Shown here: piece after piece, positions 2,059 through 63,819 of the stretch
Layout: every line of letters begins with the position of its first letter
How positions within the stretch are numbered: position 1 is the stretch's first letter
From: Waterburya sp.
GTDB lineage: Bacteria > Cyanobacteriota > Cyanobacteriia > Cyanobacteriales > Xenococcaceae
Direction of reading: 5' to 3'
Length of the DNA stretch: 64,000 nucleotides
NCBI GenBank assembly: GCA_965217895.1
Contig: CBDCJV010000002.1
Location: 1,152,001 to 1,216,000 of the forward strand
Program-made: the position numbers and the translations under genes
Notes under the pieces: generated by a model
The model's database searches: none
The model's input: only the letters and a program-made list of their open reading frames with translations
What the model was told of the DNA's origin: nothing

Positions 2059-2325
2059 GGCGTTGCTGAACGTGTAATGCTAAAATAAAATTTTACTTAT
2101 CTATTCATCAACATGGCGATTAGAGATGCTCTCTGACCGAGAGCCTCTCTCGCCATCAAAACAGATTGCTCAAAAGCTAATAGTGAGGGCGACCCCGCGT
2201 CGGCGTAAGACGCAAGACAAAGGCTTTAGCCGCATGTACGCGCCCGAACCCGAAGGGCTAAAGGCTAAGAGCTAAGAGCTATGAACAGAATTATTTTATA
2301 TGTCATTACTTGAATCAGCAACGCC
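2059..2325. mobile_element. MITE, GGCGTTGCTGA/TCAGCAACGCC family, with internal small-repeat inserts
   Basis: TIRs at both ends; flanks GAGATTTG/AAGATTTG (7/8 TSD); homologous to 62237-62429 in the opposite orientation. Confidence 0.8.
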
Positions 2326-40300: not shown

Positions 40301-41525
40301 AGGACTTACGCAGTTTAACGAGTTTTGCCCCCCTAGCCCCCCAAGTTTGGTAGGGCTGTTTCATTCTCAAAATAGAAGATGCGATCGCGAATAAATCTAT
40401 TCACTACACCTATCAGTGACACAAAGAAAGTAATAATGGCAAATTATGGCTTAAATAACTGATTGCCTCAGTCATAGAATCAAAACCATGAACTCTCAGT
40501 AGGTTAATAACCCAACTTTTAATCAAAGAGATGTTTGTGGATGCTTTGCCGTGAAGTTGAGGGCTGTTATCTTCTTTCGTTACGACATCCTTAAACGGCA
40601 CTCAATACGGCGACGCAGGTTCGCCGTCCGTACCTCCCCAATGCCAACGATTCTCGATACCCCAATGTCGGCCAATACCTTGGGGAATAAGCCAAGAAGT
40701 TGCTGTTCACAAGTAGCAGATAACAAGTAGCGCAGCCTGGAGGCTGCCGACGTTGCTCCGCAACGGCCAGACGCGAAGCGCGTCTGCAAGTTCAACCTCT
40801 GCCACAGCAAGCAAAGCTTGCAAAGTCGTCGAAGACGACGACATGGAGCGATAGCTCCTGTGTCAGACAAAGGGCTTGCCCGCATGTATTCAAGAGTTGA
40901 ATTATTTTTTCATCTTTTCCTCATCAATGAAGAGGCTGCATATCCAACTTCGGAGTTTTTCTTAATTGCTATCTGCTATTTGCACACGCTGGAGCGTGTC
41001 GCCATCGCGAAGCGATGTCGGCGTTCTCCAGAACGCGCTACTTGCTACTTAACTCCGAAGGAGTTGGGTAAAGAACTAATATAATAAGTCGCCGAATCCG
41101 ATTCGTAATCGTGATTACCTCTTGTTCGCGAACGGAAAATTTTGATGATACTATGAACTCCAACCCATTGAGAATCAATGTTTGATGGAGGAGCCAATAC
41201 TTCTACAGTTCGATGAGTTAGTCGATTTCTCGTCTTCTCGATCTGCTCAAAGCAACTAATCGCCTTTGTACTTGTTGCTTGAAATTCAACAGCGGAGTGG
41301 AATAAGCGCGGGAAACCCACGCATTTCCTCCGCTCAATTTGTCGATGTAATGTTTTTTGATTTCTTTTGACCACAATTAGGTAGTTATTACCACTGTCGA
41401 TAATTGCTGAGACTGTTTGCTTGGTGCGCGTACATGCGGAAGCGCGCCTTTGTCTTGCGCCTGTCAGCATTCCCTTGCGTCTTACGCCGACGCGGGGTCG
41501 CTCGTCTTGGGGGATTTAGGGGGCT
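40301..41525. mobile_element. Nested mobile-element remnant: AGGACTTACGCA-MITE interrupted by a degraded ISAs1 carrying further small insertions
   Basis: 40301-40350 nearly identical to 6217-6266; TAGGGCTGTTTCATT end at 40351; MITE-like tail GGGGATTTAGGGGGC near 41510. Confidence 0.75.
40413..41430 (-). pseudogene. ISAs1-family transposase fragments
   Basis: TVSAIIDSGNNYLIVVKRNQKTLH, EKTRNR..HR, YYISSL, KDVVTKED..NISLIKSWVINLLR. Confidence 0.8.
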
Positions 41526-45927: not shown

Positions 45928-47697
45928 ATGCTGTTAAACAAACAAACTCTAATTATTGATTTGATAAATGCTTTTTGGATTACAGGGGTTTTTATAGCTT
46001 TATTTATCTGGCTACCTTTAAAAAGCTCTCATATTGCTGCTACAAAACAGACAAATTTCCCGATAGTAGGCTTTTATTTACGCACGTCTTTGATGGCGAT
46101 CGCAGGAGCTTTATGCCTAAGCTATTTACATTTATTAAATTGGCTAACTCTGGTTTTACTATACATTGTCTATTTGATAATTAATTACTTAGAAAGATGT
46201 AATTGGCAGTTAGAAAGCTGTCAGCAAATAGCTCAAGATAAAGTATTTAATTTAATAGATATTTTTGATCGAGGAGTATCTTTTAGATATTTAATTAAAG
46301 GTATATATGATAATTGTCAGCAGCTAAACCAAAGATCTAGTGACTACCTAACAAATTTAATAATTAAGCAAGGAATAGGATTTATAGCAATATTAATCAT
46401 AATTTTGGCATTTACCCTATTGCTTAGATGGGAACATCCTTTATTAGAACTACGCTTTAGCCGTCCAGAAAGCTATGGCGATTTATTGTTAACTCGGCAA
46501 ATCTTAAGACAATATCCAGAAACCAGTTATTTACCTGTATTTCCTGCTTTAGCAGCAATGCTGTCTTTGCTTGGTTCAATAGACGCAATGCAGGTTATTC
46601 GTTTTCTTAGTCCGATTTTAGGATTAATTATAGTTTTAGGCGTTGGCTATTTAGTGCGCGTTTTAACTGATAATGTCTCCTCAGCTTTGGCGAGTATGTT
46701 TGCTTTAGGAGCATATCTATTTACCTGGAAAGTAGTTAACCCAGAATCATCTGCATGGCTAACAAAAATGGTAGATAGTTTAAATAGCTCTCTAGTTAGA
46801 CAGTGGACAGGTAATGAATTAGAACTAGGTGTAATCTTTGTTCTACTAGGTTTGGGATATTGTTTTGATGCCAGCCAACAGCAGCGAAAAACTGCCGTTT
46901 TTAAGCTCAATTTCGTCTGTAGCATTATCTTAGTCGGAATGTCTGCTCCACCACTGTTAATCTTAATGGCGATCGCATCTATCGGCTTGCTCGGTGGTAA
47001 AAAAGTGGCATTAGCAGCAATTACCTCGACCTGGATTATTTTAGCTTTTTTTGCTGTTCTAGCTCAGGGAGAGCTTTTGTGGACTCAAAGTTTTCTTCTG
47101 ACTCTACCTGTTGCCCTTAGTTTGTCAACAGGACTATTATTTAACCAAATTACTGAGACTGGCAAATTATTATCAGCAAAATGGGCAGAAACTTTTTGTC
47201 TGGCTTTAGTTTTGGCTTTAGCTTTTAACTTTCTGCTGCCGTTAACACCTAAACTGACCTATGTAGAATACGAGATTACGGCTCGTAAAACCCTAGAGAT
47301 TAAAGAGCTTTTACCTCGCAATAGCTGGACTCTGGCTGCACCAGTAGAACAACTAGCAGAAATATATGGCTCTGGCTGGTATGAAGACTTGGCTTTATTT
47401 GTCGAAAAATATGCAGAGCAAGCTAATCAGCCAGAATTTAACTTTCCCGTAGGCGAAACAGATCTTTTTATATTTGTCGAAAAAATCCCCTTTATTACTT
47501 TTGGTGAGCAGCTATCTACCCTGCCTAATTCAATTTTAGGCGATCGCACCTACGGTCATTATCGCTCCGCTTCAGGACGAGCTAGCCTAGAGTTTGAGGC
47601 GTTGCAAATGTGCGAAGCATATCGCCAAAATCACCCAAAGAGTGAAGTTTATTTTGAAAATAATGAGCTGAGGATATATCGTTTTCTACCAGTCTAA
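45928..47697 (+). CDS. Multi-TM hypothetical protein, possibly a GT-C-like glycan modifier
   Basis: About 12 hydrophobic segments plus a soluble C-terminal domain; divergent from galE. Confidence 0.55.
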   Translation: MLLNKQTLIIDLINAFWITGVFIALFIWLPLKSSHIAATKQTNFPIVGFYLRTSLMAIAGALCLSYLHLLNWLTLVLLYIVYLIINYLERCNWQLESCQQIAQDKVFNLIDIFDRGVSFRYLIKGIYDNCQQLNQRSSDYLTNLIIKQGIGFIAILIIILAFTLLLRWEHPLLELRFSRPESYGDLLLTRQILRQYPETSYLPVFPALAAMLSLLGSIDAMQVIRFLSPILGLIIVLGVGYLVRVLTDNVSSALASMFALGAYLFTWKVVNPESSAWLTKMVDSLNSSLVRQWTGNELELGVIFVLLGLGYCFDASQQQRKTAVFKLNFVCSIILVGMSAPPLLILMAIASIGLLGGKKVALAAITSTWIILAFFAVLAQGELLWTQSFLLTLPVALSLSTGLLFNQITETGKLLSAKWAETFCLALVLALAFNFLLPLTPKLTYVEYEITARKTLEIKELLPRNSWTLAAPVEQLAEIYGSGWYEDLALFVEKYAEQANQPEFNFPVGETDLFIFVEKIPFITFGEQLSTLPNSILGDRTYGHYRSASGRASLEFEALQMCEAYRQNHPKSEVYFENNELRIYRFLPV

Positions 47698-47706
47698 GTA
47701 CTAACG

Positions 47707-47775
47707 GGCATTGCTGATTTAAGTAATGACGTACAATGTATTTCGGTTCATAGCTCTCAGCTATTAGCTTTTGAA
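47707..47775 (+). mobile_element. Left end of GGCGTTGCTGA-family MITE immediately upstream of Argonaute
   Basis: GGCATTGCTGATTTAAGTAATGACGTACAA..TTCATAGCTCTCAGCTATTAGCTTT aligns to 62237-62315. Confidence 0.7.
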
Positions 47776-47805
47776 TCGTTAGCTAACTAATTTATTGGAA
47801 AATAA

Positions 47806-49944
47806 ATGAGCAAAAATACTTTTAAAGTTTTTCTGAATAGATTTCCTGTCAAACAACTGAGCGATCGCGAAAAAACCGTACAAGTTTATAGTTATACATT
47901 CAATCCATCTCCAGAACCAGGAAAAGAATATTCGGCAATCAATAAAATACCTTGGAAAATAAGAACGCCAGGAGTAAAATTAAAGTCCACAATTATTACT
48001 AAGCAATTGATATCAGATGAATGTTTGAAACAAGATAATTGGACACTGAATTATACAGGAACGCAATTATTAAATTTAGATAATTCTAATGAGAGAGAAG
48101 CTTTAGAAAAATTAGAAAGAAAATGGTTAGAACGGGAGTTAAGATACAAACTTTCTAGAAACAGGGTCGATCGCGCTTTGGGAGGGGGATTTATTTGGTG
48201 GGATGCTAATAACATTATTTTGCAAGATTTAGGTTGGGAAGTTCATACAGGAGTTCGCTTAGATGTCGAGCTTCATTATTCAGGAGTTATCTTTATCGAA
48301 ATCGATCTTCATCATCGTTTTTGCAGTTCTTGGACACTAGAACAATGGCTGCAAGATTATAAAGATATACCAATTAATTGGGTTCGCAATACTTATGACG
48401 ATCGCTCTTGGAAATTTATTCGTATCAGTGATGAAAAGCCAGAAACTACGATGATTCCTAATTTGGGAAGTTTGGCTGATTATCATCGAAACCTAGATAA
48501 AAATAAGGCGACAGAAAAGGAAATTAAAGATGCTCATGTTGTATATGTTAGTAGTAAAGGAAAAGAATTAACCCATCTTTCTACAAGACTTAGACCTAGT
48601 ATAACGATGGAAATTCTAAGTCAATTACAAGATCGAGATTCGACTGAAGCAGCCAAAGTATTTAAACAAGTAAAGAAAACTATTCAGCAACGTTTTGATA
48701 AATCAAATAACACCGCGCAATGGTTAAGTAAAAATATTTATAGTTCAGATCGGACAACTAAGCCTCAAATAACTGAGGGAAGTATTCTGAGAAATAAATC
48801 TCCTCTATTGTTAACTAAATCTAAAAAAGTTTACCGATCGATAAATAGTTTGGATGAAGGTTGTTTTAGTACGGGAGAACAACAATTTGGTTGTTTGGAC
48901 TTAACAGGAAATGGTAATTGGTCGAAATTTATTCAAAGCAAACTAGAATCTGTTGCTCAAAAAAGCGGTATAGACATTTTATTAGAAGCAGCACAGAAAA
49001 AAAGCGATTTACCCGATAGTATATTTACCCGCAAACAATTTTGGCATGATTGGGCAGATCGAGGTACTCAAACTATTTTAGTGATTAGTAACTGGTTACA
49101 AAATACCGAGAAAGCGCAATTACAAAAAGAAGCTTTAGATGCCAACATTGCCCTTCAGTTCATGCAGCCAATGTTAAGAGAAGAAAAATATCGAATAGCT
49201 AATGTCATTTTGGGCTTGTTACTCAAAGCAAAATGGCAACCAGTTGGATTAGAACCTCTACAGGATGAATATGCAGCCGAAATAGTTATTGGTTTTGATG
49301 CAGGAACAAATAGAAATCTTTATTATGGAACGAGTGCTTTTGCCATTTTAGCTAACGGACAAAGCTTAGGTTGGGAACTTCCAGAAGCACAGCCAGGAGA
49401 AAAAATAAGTTCAGAAGCAATTATACGTACTGTTACTAATATCGTCACCAGATTTCAAAGAATAGAAAATAGACTTCCTCGTCGTATATTAATGCTTCGA
49501 GATGGCATCGTCCAATGCGAAGAATTTGATGATGTAGTAGCAGCTTTATTAGATGATAAAATTGCAGTCGATCTTTTGGGTGTCAGAAAAAGTGGTGCGG
49601 GAAGAATGGCTGTTAAAAATGAATATGGAGAGTTTATTGATGCTTCACCAGGAACAGCAATACTTTCTACTGATGATAAAACTTTTCGTATTGTAACTTC
49701 TGAAGCAAAAGCAGGAGGAAGCGCACGCCCTTTAAAAGCAGTTAGAGATTTCGGTGATGCACCTTTAGAAATATTAGCCAAACAAGTTGATCGCCTGAGT
49801 ATGCTTAATCCAGCTAGTGCCTACGCTTATAGTCGTTTACCCTATGTCATTCACTTTGCTGACAAAATGGCTAAAAGTGTTCAACGTATTGGTGAAGTAG
49901 GTATTTTACATGGAGTAGATCGGCAGAAAATTTTCTTTGTTTAA
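47806..49944 (+). CDS. ago: Long prokaryotic Argonaute (N-PAZ-MID-PIWI) with intact DEDD tetrad
   Basis: ALQFM, NVILGLLLKAKWQP (MID); IGFDAG, ELPEAQPGE, LMLRDG, VRKSGAGR, SRLPYVIHFADK (PIWI); resembles cyanobacterial SeAgo-type proteins. Confidence 0.92.
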   Translation: MSKNTFKVFLNRFPVKQLSDREKTVQVYSYTFNPSPEPGKEYSAINKIPWKIRTPGVKLKSTIITKQLISDECLKQDNWTLNYTGTQLLNLDNSNEREALEKLERKWLERELRYKLSRNRVDRALGGGFIWWDANNIILQDLGWEVHTGVRLDVELHYSGVIFIEIDLHHRFCSSWTLEQWLQDYKDIPINWVRNTYDDRSWKFIRISDEKPETTMIPNLGSLADYHRNLDKNKATEKEIKDAHVVYVSSKGKELTHLSTRLRPSITMEILSQLQDRDSTEAAKVFKQVKKTIQQRFDKSNNTAQWLSKNIYSSDRTTKPQITEGSILRNKSPLLLTKSKKVYRSINSLDEGCFSTGEQQFGCLDLTGNGNWSKFIQSKLESVAQKSGIDILLEAAQKKSDLPDSIFTRKQFWHDWADRGTQTILVISNWLQNTEKAQLQKEALDANIALQFMQPMLREEKYRIANVILGLLLKAKWQPVGLEPLQDEYAAEIVIGFDAGTNRNLYYGTSAFAILANGQSLGWELPEAQPGEKISSEAIIRTVTNIVTRFQRIENRLPRRILMLRDGIVQCEEFDDVVAALLDDKIAVDLLGVRKSGAGRMAVKNEYGEFIDASPGTAILSTDDKTFRIVTSEAKAGGSARPLKAVRDFGDAPLEILAKQVDRLSMLNPASAYAYSRLPYVIHFADKMAKSVQRIGEVGILHGVDRQKIFFV

Positions 49945-49967
49945 ATTAAATTCAGCAACTACTAATA

Positions 49968-50086
49968 TAAGTGGGTAGGTGTAATTAAATATAAAATGGA
50001 TTTGATAGAGGTCAGAGGTCAGAAGTCAGAGGTCAGGGCAAAAAGTTAATGTTGGTATCTTATAAATGATTTCGCCCACCTACTTA
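49968..50086. mobile_element. MITE with TAAGTGGGTAGG../..CCCACCTACTTA ends and internal AGAGGTC heptamers
   Basis: Imperfect TIRs; inverted homologue at 63475-63819. Confidence 0.75.
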
Positions 50087-50135
50087 CTTAATAAAAAATG
50101 TACTTAAAACAACGTAAATATATTCCTTTTTAGCT

Positions 50136-50570
50136 ATGAATAATCAACTAGAAAAACTTTATCATCGGGATTTAAATCTTTGGCGCAAAGAGATTGTAAA
50201 TGCCATTCATAATAGAGAACTTAAAAATATGGATTGGGATAATCTAATTGAAGAAATTAACGATATGGGAGCGAGTGAAAGACGTGCCTTGAGAAGTTAT
50301 ACCAAAAGATTAATCGAACATATATTTAAACTTAAATACTGGAAAAGCGAAAGGGGATACAACCAGCGAGGTTGGAAAAAAGAAGTAGTTAATTTTCGTG
50401 AGGAAATTAAAAGTATTTTGGAAGAGTCTCCCAGTTTGAATAATTACTTACAGCAAAATTATTTGGATTGGTATCAGAAATCAATAAAGGCAATGCGAGA
50501 AGAGTTTGCTATTCCTGATGATAATTTTGTGAAGCTAGAAACAATGATGACGGATGGTTATTTTGGGTAA
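50136..50570 (+). CDS. DUF29 family protein
   Basis: LYHRDLNLW, DWDNLIEEINDMG.SE, LIEHIFKLKYW, SPSL. Confidence 0.88.
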   Translation: MNNQLEKLYHRDLNLWRKEIVNAIHNRELKNMDWDNLIEEINDMGASERRALRSYTKRLIEHIFKLKYWKSERGYNQRGWKKEVVNFREEIKSILEESPSLNNYLQQNYLDWYQKSIKAMREEFAIPDDNFVKLETMMTDGYFG

Positions 50571-50641: not shown

Positions 50642-51037
50642 ATGAAACTTCAAGGAGAGATTAGAACAGGAAAAAATGACTTTTCTTTCTGGATAAAAAA
50701 ATTATCGTCTTATTACACACAAAAGACGGGAATGATTTTCTTTCCAGGTACACTTAATATTCATCTTATCGATCGCAAATATTACTTTCCTAAAGACTGT
50801 ATTAGGCTAGAGAAAGAAGAATACGGAGGAAGGGTTTCAGTTAGCATGATTCCCTGTCAAATTTTGGGCAAAGATGCCTATGTTCTCCGTACCGATAGCG
50901 ATACTGGAAAACATGGCTATTTTCCAGAACAGATTTTAGAGATCGCTACTGATATTAAGCTGCGAGATGAGTTTGGATTAAAGGATGGAGATGTTATTGA
51001 AGTCGAAGTAAATGCAGGGCAAATTTCCGAAGCATAG
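50642..51037 (+). CDS. CTP-dependent riboflavin kinase-like protein (DUF120)
   Basis: G.I.TG start, FPGTLNI, LEIAT..KLRD.FGLKDGDVIEVEV. Confidence 0.75.
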   Translation: MKLQGEIRTGKNDFSFWIKKLSSYYTQKTGMIFFPGTLNIHLIDRKYYFPKDCIRLEKEEYGGRVSVSMIPCQILGKDAYVLRTDSDTGKHGYFPEQILEIATDIKLRDEFGLKDGDVIEVEVNAGQISEA

Positions 51038-51059
51038 TTTAAGAAAACGCTTTTTAAGA

Positions 51060-51761
51060 TTAAACAGTAAGATATCGATGGACTAAAGAATCCGACAATT
51101 CAGGGGTTGTTCCTCTAGCAACGATCGCACCTTTGTCCATAATAAAGAATCTTTGGGCAAGCTGGCGGATAAAGTCGATTTTCTGTTCGACGACAATTAC
51201 CGTAATGCCTTTTTCGCGGTTGATTCTTCTCAGGGTATCTTCAATTTCCTGCACAATAGAGGGTTGAATTCCTTCGGTGGGTTCGTCCAAAAGCATAATT
51301 TTGGGATTGCACATTAATCCTCTGGCGATCGCCAGCTGCTGTTGTTGTCCGCCACTAAGGAGTCCTCCTTGACGAGGTAAATGTTCTTTAAGCATTGGGA
51401 AAAATTCAAAGATCTCCGAGGGGATTCTTTTGCTGCTTTTGCCACTGGCACTAAAGCCTAGCTTTAAATTATCCAATACCGAAAGATAGGGAATAATTTC
51501 TCTACCCTGGGGAATGTAGGCAATACCGTAACGCGATCGCTTATAGGTAGGTGCTTTAGTAATATCTTTATTATCAAAAGAAAGGCTGCCTTTAGTTAAT
51601 TTATTTAAGCCAATAATGCTGCGTAAGAGCGTAGTTTTGCCCACACCATTACGCCCTAAAAGACCGACCATATCTCCTTTATTGATAGTCATGTCAACAT
51701 TAAACAACACGGGAGTTTGTCCATAGCCAGCAGTAAGATTATTAAGTTCAAGCAGCGACAT
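51060..51761 (-). CDS. urtE: Urea/short-chain amide ABC transporter ATP-binding subunit
   Basis: GRNGVGKT, IPQGREI, LSGGQQQQLAIAR, LDEPTEGIQP. Confidence 0.88.
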   Translation of the reverse strand: MSLLELNNLTAGYGQTPVLFNVDMTINKGDMVGLLGRNGVGKTTLLRSIIGLNKLTKGSLSFDNKDITKAPTYKRSRYGIAYIPQGREIIPYLSVLDNLKLGFSASGKSSKRIPSEIFEFFPMLKEHLPRQGGLLSGGQQQQLAIARGLMCNPKIMLLDEPTEGIQPSIVQEIEDTLRRINREKGITVIVVEQKIDFIRQLAQRFFIMDKGAIVARGTTPELSDSLVHRYLTV

Positions 51762-62236: not shown

Positions 62237-62429
62237 GGCGTTGCTGATTCAAGTGATGACGTATAAAATATTACTGTTCGTAGCTTTTAGCTCTCAGCTT
62301 TTAGCTATTAGCTTTCAAGTATTCTTCATGTTCCAACAAGGTGATTAGAGATGGCGAGGAAACCTCGCCCTCTCTCACCTTCAAATTAGGAAATAAAAAA
62401 CCTGTACAGCATTACAATTCAGCAACGCC
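62237..62429. mobile_element. MITE, GGCGTTGCTGA/TCAGCAACGCC family, intact
   Basis: Perfect 11-bp TIRs and perfect 8-bp TSD CTTTTAAG (62229-62236 and 62430-62437). Confidence 0.88.
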
Positions 62430-63452: not shown

Positions 63453-63474
63453 AGAAAATTATAAATTCTACAAA

Positions 63475-63819
63475 TAAGCAGGTGGGCGAAATCATTTATA
63501 AGATACGCCTAATGTGAATTGCAAAATGCTTATTCTCGCTTCTAATTAAAATTGGTCTGTGAAAACCATAGCTTAATACTGGGGGAATTTTCCCCCAGAC
63601 CCCCTGTTGGGGAGGGCGTAACGTCCCCAAACCCCTGACGTAAACATTAACATCGATTCTTTCCATAATTAATTGGAGTTTAAATCCGCATATGGATTTT
63701 ATATAAAATAAAAGAATGAAATTTAATTTACATCAGACGTAAGATATCAATACTAACTTTTGCCCTGACCTCTGACCTCTATCAAAGTCATTTTATATTT
63801 AATTACACTTACTTACTTA
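63475..63819. mobile_element. TAAGCAGGTGGGC-type MITE carrying a nested second MITE (63506-63739)
   Basis: Outer parts match the reverse complement of 49968-50086; inner element has TIRs CGCCTAATGTGAATT/AATTTACATCAGACG and TSD TAAGATA. Confidence 0.8.

Follow-up and report, generated by a model that had tools for sequence, protein, structure and literature searches.

The ago locus

The DNA analysed here is a stretch of 64,000 nucleotides from Waterburya sp. (G000:C2:1152001-1216000; hereafter the window, in whose coordinates all positions are given unless a genome and contig are named). It contains an Argonaute gene, ago, that lies between a gene for a predicted membrane protein and a short series of genes and gene remnants, with sequences of two MITE families close by. 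The features that matter for what follows are these:

2059..2325, no strand assigned: complete MITE of the family found upstream of ago, 267 bp, flanks matching at 7/8
45928..47697, + strand: predicted membrane protein gene, 589 aa, no Pfam match, co-oriented with ago, with an ortholog in G017 that is 89% identical in amino acid sequence
47699..47706, + strand: left flank, the 8 bp next to the MITE end that were supposed to be a target duplication
47707..47772, + strand: orphan end of the IS1-related MITE family, 66 bp, ending in 7-bp tandem repeats
47773..47805, + strand: spacer of 33 bp between the MITE end and the ago start
47806..49944, + strand: ago, long-A prokaryotic Argonaute, 712 aa, PAZ and PIWI domains, tetrad D498/E532/D566/D686
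49949..49959, + strand: 11-bp look-alike of the MITE right end, without the 3-bp tip, its first bases overlapping the native post-stop sequence of ago
49960..49967, + strand: 8 bp that match the left flank at 6/8
49968..50086, no strand assigned: complete member, 119 bp, of a second MITE family unrelated to the first
50090..50110, + strand: remnant of the G013 ago-to-RFK junction (18/21 bp), outside the supposed unit
50136..50570, + strand: DUF29 gene, close homologs of which are mfd-array cargo in G041, G007, G005, G053 and G047
50642..51037, + strand: CTP-dependent riboflavin-kinase-like gene RFK (PF01982), directly after ago in G013
51038..51059, + strand: remnant resembling the start of a Uma2 gene, 15 bp of it in common with the same flank in G017 (a resemblance that carries no null score)
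51060..51761, - strand: ABC-transporter ATPase gene, where synteny with relatives restarts
62237..62429, no strand assigned: complete MITE of the family found upstream of ago, 193 bp, flanks matching at 8/8

The Argonaute protein

The ago reading frame is intact, and judging from its sequence it probably encodes an ordinary, predicted-active long-A pAgo, in agreement with a preliminary description of this DNA that had called it an active long Argonaute. The protein aligns with TtAgo over residues 7-712 (E 1e-74), is matched by the PADLOC pAgo model (E 1.8e-266), contains PF18309 and PF02171 (PAZ and PIWI domains), and has both the full length (N, PAZ, MID and PIWI regions) and the DEDX tetrad that mark long-A pAgos. 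D498, E532, D566 and D686 align with the catalytic sites of TtAgo, at the positions that we take those sites to occupy, and are invariant across seven sequences. Like TtAgo and SeAgo the protein is long-A, and with TtAgo it shares a full-length match, PAZ, PIWI and the DEDD tetrad; by homology, and with its tetrad intact, it would be expected to cut foreign DNA with DNA guides as those two proteins do.

The closest ago genes among named records come from Pleurocapsa or Hyellaceae. The main text of PMC10653904 reports predicted-active pAgos in Pleurocapsa and Stanieria, places those of Pleurocapsa in one clade with TtAgo, argues that pAgo inheritance is horizontal, and describes a reduction of natural transformation by SeAgo. 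The clade is a known one, and the protein encoded here is ordinary within it. No close ago was found on viral contigs, and matches on plasmids came only from Thermus and Hydrogenophilus, all below 60%.

A MITE family with IS1-family partners

The preliminary description had credited both complete MITEs of the window with 8-bp target duplications; this is correct for 62237-62429 (8/8), and at 2059-2325 the flanks agree at 7/8, not 8/8. Across the G000 genome there are 93 exact tips of the family, and 31 copies, each 91-439 bp long, are paired and have flanks that match. Among 71 short pairs, the flanks match at 8/8 in 21, at 7/8 in 9, at 6/8 in 4 and at fewer positions in 37, so that an 8-bp target duplication, taken as 7/8 or 8/8, is present in 30/71; the family has no coding capacity. 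The end pattern occurs in 39/39 genomes of the genus, where reversed-pattern controls yield 0-2 matches per genome. When ends were collected by similarity, 32/104 in G000 were orphans with no partner within 600 bp, and many of these terminate at the same 7-bp tandem repeats.

In relatives, ends of this family flank an IS1 DDE domain within elements of 756-850 bp (L124, L128, L141, L142, L143, L161 and L162), three of which have 8/8 duplications. The transposase is a single open frame in L141 and L142, and one ORF within the IS1-type elements bears both PF03811 and PF03400. The autonomous partners of the MITE family are IS1-family elements, with which it has its terminal inverted repeats in common. 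The earlier guess of an IS1/IS1595-like partner was therefore right in its first half only: PF12762, the IS1595 domain, has 0 matches in G000 and is present in 2/39 genomes at loci without paired ends, and in G019 a single end, lacking a partner, lies 1.3 kb from the IS1595 domain. ISL3, a further candidate, has no match in G000. The IS1 content of G000 itself amounts to only two fragments, and no intact IS1 transposase was found in that genome. The second MITE family, which has other ends, is represented in the window at 49968-50086 and ~63472-63819 and by 10 strict-pattern copies in G000. The window also holds a 141-aa ORF (41045-41470) with no Pfam match at E 0.001, presumably a fragment of an ISAs1-type transposase by its appearance.

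G000 yielded no long, gene-carrying pair of MITE ends, whether in a set of 646 convergent pairs spanning 0.5-12 kb, one of which has a 7/9 match and degenerate tips, or among pairs longer than 600 bp and up to 30 kb. L145, a candidate with a 7/9 match, consists instead of an orphan end and a separate MITE. L146 measures 550 bp; visual inspection shows a 7-bp duplication, and it contains no ORF of 70 aa. For a wider survey of cargo we used the end lists of 25 genomes and chose long pairs by eye among the matches listed; of the 14 non-transposase long pairs examined from those matches, one has an exact 8-bp outer duplication. This one, an element of 1392 bp in G022 (G022:C65:29719-31110; L144/L158), carries only a CLC channel gene (PF00654) and has an 8/8 duplication. 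This CLC gene is the second copy in that genome and is trimmed at both ends relative to its homologs; its start codon lies inside the MITE end, and MITE sequence is fused to the gene beside a HIP1-like site. G000 has the corresponding empty site, with both flanks contiguous, and there is a local duplication near the site in G022. With two ends, an exact duplication, a passenger only and an empty site, the CLC element has the defining features of a mobile insertion cassette, and its existence raises the prior for a model in which ago is MITE cargo. The broader idea that MITE ends can serve as a gene vehicle, put forward in the preliminary description, holds for the CLC passenger and is not supported for a 2.25-kb unit with ago alone.

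The junction upstream of ago

The 66 bp at 47707-47772 are 83% identical to the right end of the MITE at 2059-2325, 81% identical to the left end of the one at 62237, and up to 84% identical to other ends of the family. As had been proposed, this is a genuine end of the MITE family, but it is an ordinary one. The alignment with G017, G019, G020 and G023 stops 4 bp short of the MITE tip, at 47702, which marks a synteny breakpoint. In 4/4 of these close relatives the membrane gene runs on into another gene, which we take to be a thiC-like gene with a riboswitch and which lies 3.4 Mb away in G000; no partner end with a matching duplication was seen beside the displaced gene there. The empty site that was to be sought by aligning relatives is absent from all four. 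Only internally deleted remains of the membrane gene are present in the group of G019 (L020), G023 (L021) and G020 (L022).

Contigs from sequencing runs X3 and X4 cease to match at the same base as the relatives (47702), and among the matches listed there is no joint in run contigs that skips ago. The bases that follow 47702 in the relatives match the left flank of the MITE end at 6/8 in 3/4 genomes, for which reason the left flank has the look of true target DNA. In run X2, which may be the source sample rather than an independent one, a single contig covers 47599-49996 with 0 differences and argues that the junctions are not an assembly error. The spacer at 47773-47805 was considered as the tail of a G013 mfd repeat (see below); the match is not significant, since 640/3297 control spacers score equally. 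The MITE end had also been suggested as the promoter of ago, a suggestion that finds no support in a promoter scan: no promoter-like site was found within the end, and the scan gave one 9/12 site, in the membrane gene, with 1.0 expected by chance.

The junction downstream of ago

The 11-bp, tipless right piece and the 6/8 flank match noted in the preliminary description are indeed present, at 49949-49959 and 49960-49967. Scored on a matrix of 60 genuine ends, the piece reaches 11.2, about the 5th percentile, and 280 tipless positions in the genome score as high. Among 3798 ORFs, ago is the only one with the 8-bp right-end core within 25 bp of its stop (about 0.85 such ORFs expected, by a hand estimate from base composition); it also has the orphan end upstream, in the correct orientation to the right piece, which shares a 14-bp identical run with one genomic MITE end. 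The genome-wide probability of a core with a flank match of at least 6/8 within 5 kb of any orphan end was 0.03, 0.14 or 0.18, depending on core length, in a null of 300 resamplings that allowed the 6/8 match in four registers and for which 0.03 is the strictest value. Frequent chance occurrence of the right end had been named in advance as counting against a moved unit, and on this the result is divided, the core being unique to ago among the ORFs while 280 positions equal the piece and P spans 0.03-0.18.

Of the two inverted ends of the supposed ago unit only the left is complete, and its target duplication reaches 6/8 only on the assumption that a 3-bp tip was lost. Among the MITEs of G000 there was no convincing tip-deleted end with an intact duplication (3 weak matches), and no copy of 49952-49967 with up to 2 mismatches was found elsewhere. 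The 11-bp "end" and the 6/8 flank match are most likely a coincidence, not the boundary of a moved unit. That coincidence is not small, and we do not treat it as negligible.

A probable inherited block that includes ago

Beyond the right boundary of the supposed unit, 50090-50110 matches the ago-RFK junction of G013 at 18/21, a level reached by 2/3168 other upstream segments and by 4/5000 shuffles. G000 has one copy of RFK, 0.7 kb from ago. In G013 the two genes abut, and in G022 and G008 either the whole of RFK or a fragment of it is found at ~2 to 2.5 kb from ago. The next gene after RFK is Uma2 in both G013 and G022; at that place G000 has 22 bp that resemble a Uma2 start, which suggests that the G013 order ago-RFK-Uma2 has been kept in G000. 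G017 retains 15 of the Uma2-like bases beside the same ABC-transporter gene, which is presumably urtE-like. From their order and sequence, ago, DUF29 and RFK look like one inherited block, with the proviso that the junction matches downstream of ago are short and AT-rich and rest mainly on G013. A random cassette landing would not bring neighbours with it, and the native junction and RFK, lying outside the supposed ends, therefore argue against one.

No empty site without ago was found in the relatives' genomes and sequencing runs searched. At 48 further ago loci, 20 of them in the genus and its near relatives and 28 from the class search (which returned loci for 30/38 genomes), there were no paired MITE ends, the loose matches there being single-sided or coding. 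End-like matches near ago in G005 and G332 lie inside coding sequence and have no duplication. These comparisons do not support the proposal that a 2.25-kb unit holding only ago was moved to this place: neither an empty site nor paired ends around the other ago genes were found, and the native junction lies outside the right boundary.

Arrays of mfd 3'-end repeats and the spread of ago

An ago gene or fragment is present in 16/38 other genomes of the genus. In 5/16 it is of a more distant type, 65-74% identical and with no mfd repeat nearby; this second type (L007, L008, L103, L104 and L105) has the same upstream gene in all five genomes, one that we assume to be ndhB-like. Where ago or its fragments belong to the close clade, mfd or a copy of its 3' end lies within 1.5 kb upstream in 9/11 genus genomes, and of the other two, one has no mfd match upstream and one has no upstream DNA. 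The repeats are copies of ~140 bp from the very 3' end of mfd, with roughly 70-88% identity to mfd ends; most of them start at or just past the HIP1 site that lies 139 bp before the mfd stop. They separate units that hold pAgo, Uma2, DUF29, XisH/XisI, an AAA ATPase, RmuC, Phd and RT genes, and at least two mfd-end matches are present in 16/39 genus genomes. Array loci were recorded at G000:C2:1231673-1234791 (L216) and at L064-L071, L077, L100 and L217-L223.

The array of G000, which is on the same strand as ago and ends 30 kb away from it, comprises DUF29, RT, a Phd antitoxin gene and a truncated mfd repeat; the Phd gene precedes RFK in G017. No mfd repeat is left adjacent to ago in G000. The RT gene of this array (L216:4463-6049; G000:C2:1232462-1234048) is a stand-alone gene of 528 aa and possibly a defence RT. 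Identity of ago does not track identity of mfd (89.4% versus 83.4% in G054; 78%, over a 91-bp fragment, versus 89.3% in G017), as expected for transfer. In G017, G021 and G022 ago is reduced to small fragments (L070:8583-8790, L069:7611-7798 and L071:2587-2898), in G044 and G052 it is frameshifted, and ago has frequently been lost after gain in the genus. Two apparent copies in G054 (L100/L101, G054:C2) have the same neighbourhood at both contig ends and are probably an assembly overlap; the contig of L155 (G046:C155) is an inverted duplicate of itself, probably also an artefact of assembly. No obvious integrase appears in the ORF lists of the array regions. Outside the genus, 2 other genomes have two matches to the repeat, a count that is uninformative because the DNA query found mfd itself in only 49/151.

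Origin of the locus

Four explanations were weighed, and the weights given to them are a matter of judgement, not of calculation. The one that we favour, and regard as probable, is that the locus is a block derived from an mfd array, and that an orphan IS1-type MITE end marks the point at which it acquired a new neighbour. The ago-(DUF29)-RFK-(Uma2 remnant) block would derive from the variable array of genes that follows mfd, in which ago is retained by close relatives, an origin for which the gene order and junction sequences in common with relatives argue. A rearrangement would then have excised the block from the array and fused it to the membrane gene at the MITE end, whether through adjacent deletion or inversion driven by an IS1 transposase or through recombination between MITE copies, and would have left the single orphan end upstream of ago. 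We count several things against this explanation: the core after the stop that is unique to ago, its orientation, the 14-bp run and the 6/8 flanks; the fact that the MITE family does form gene-carrying units, with ends flush with the ORF; the short, AT-rich junction matches and the stretch 49952-49967, for which no copy was found elsewhere; and a left flank that appears to be true target DNA, together with the missing mfd repeat beside ago in G000.

Much the same observations would fit a decayed, non-autonomous IS1-family cassette with ago alone, moved in trans with an 8-bp duplication and later altered by tip loss and two flank mismatches. The ends are correctly oriented and flush with the gene, 6/8 flanks occur in 4/71 short pairs and give P = 0.03 on the strictest null, G022 supplies a true CLC example whose empty site is in G000, and IS1 partners are present in the genus. 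Such a cassette would, however, have had to land by chance within ~20 bp of what remains of its native junction, with RFK 0.7 kb away, and neither an empty site in the genomes and runs searched, nor paired ends at other ago loci, nor a convincing tip-deleted end with an intact duplication in G000 (3 weak matches), nor an intact IS1 transposase in G000 was found; we judge this origin unlikely. A lower weight, that of a rather improbable event, goes to the 11 bp being the scar of a separate, mostly deleted MITE behind ago, with a flank match due to chance and an ago that never moved between ends. The family is abundant (93 exact tips) and decays often, the piece has its 14-bp identity to one real end, and a second MITE lies 8 bp away; yet a scar of this kind should retain the tip, followed by the native flank of ago, and what follows instead is a stretch of 16 bp with no copy found elsewhere, and then the other MITE. 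Least probable of the four, in our view, is that a complete MITE stood behind the membrane gene and that ago recombined into it, through homology on the left and microhomology on the right, with both ends and the old duplication kept. The resemblance of the left flank to the relatives' target DNA and the MITE-gene fusion beside a HIP1-like site in the CLC element are consistent with such an event, which nevertheless leaves both the missing tip and the presence of the native junction and RFK to the right of the duplication unexplained.

Comparison with known systems

MIC231 is an IS4-family element, whereas the ends considered here are of the IS1 family. IS1-family insertion sequences and their MITEs have the same ends as each other, and the ago locus differs from them in having one complete end only; compared with mobile insertion cassettes, its right end is incomplete, its flanks are no exact duplication, and no empty site was found for it. 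Those cassettes, together with transporter IS, are described in passages of PMC3129680 and PMC9330008 as IS ends around a passenger gene, without a transposase and mobilised in trans; MIC231 of Bacillus cereus, which is such a cassette, appears in the title of a reference cited in PMC6542083.

Turning to the mfd arrays, gene-sized cargo units separated by related repeats are also a feature of integron cassette arrays and of additive tRNA-anchored islands. The mfd repeats differ from these in being protein-coding remnants, and no integrase ORF was recognised in the array regions examined. The closest process described is array growth that depends on an anchor and proceeds by homology-facilitated illegitimate recombination, as in the T6SS immunity arrays of Vibrio cholerae and in orphan Rhs/CDI 3' ends: sections of PMC5361080 describe a conserved gene that anchors incoming DNA, with older material shifted downstream and no integrase known. 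In the mfd arrays it is instead a core repair gene that supplies the anchor, with its 3' end; the repeat has a near-constant length of ~140 bp and starts near HIP1, and the cargo consists of unrelated genes. Relative to the literature on TtAgo and SeAgo, what differs is that the ago of close relatives sits in mfd-end arrays; the main text of PMC10653904 has 0 occurrences of "mfd". No published description of mfd arrays, of these MITE ends or of a MITE-borne pAgo was found, in a search that most subscription papers and ISfinder lay outside.

Across the genus, ago would have spread as part of the cargo that follows ~140-bp mfd 3'-end repeats beginning at or near the HIP1 site, most likely through natural transformation, with mfd as the anchor for homologous or homology-facilitated recombination; mfd arrays are a likelier route of ago spread than MITE cargo. 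According to parts of bioRxiv 10.1101/2024.09.10.611283, HIP1 sites in homology arms increase integration in Synechococcus PCC 7002, and we infer that HIP1-aided integration may be linked to homology-facilitated growth of the arrays at mfd. More tentatively still, and as a possibility that we hold to be doubtful, the arrays might constitute an integrase-free cassette system in which units of 1-2 genes, tagged with the last ~140 bp of mfd from the HIP1 site, recombine into the mfd end, restore mfd, shift older units downstream and can also be excised between repeats, so that an active Argonaute and defence-like genes spread in this way.

pAgos are known to move horizontally, and the vehicle is rarely seen; the flanks here point to arrays tagged with mfd 3'-end repeats. 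Through these arrays a natural role for HIP1-assisted recombination becomes testable, and new defence genes may be sought in them. If true, the mfd cassette system would be a natural function for the HIP1 site, and transformation would spread a nuclease whose homolog restricts transformation.
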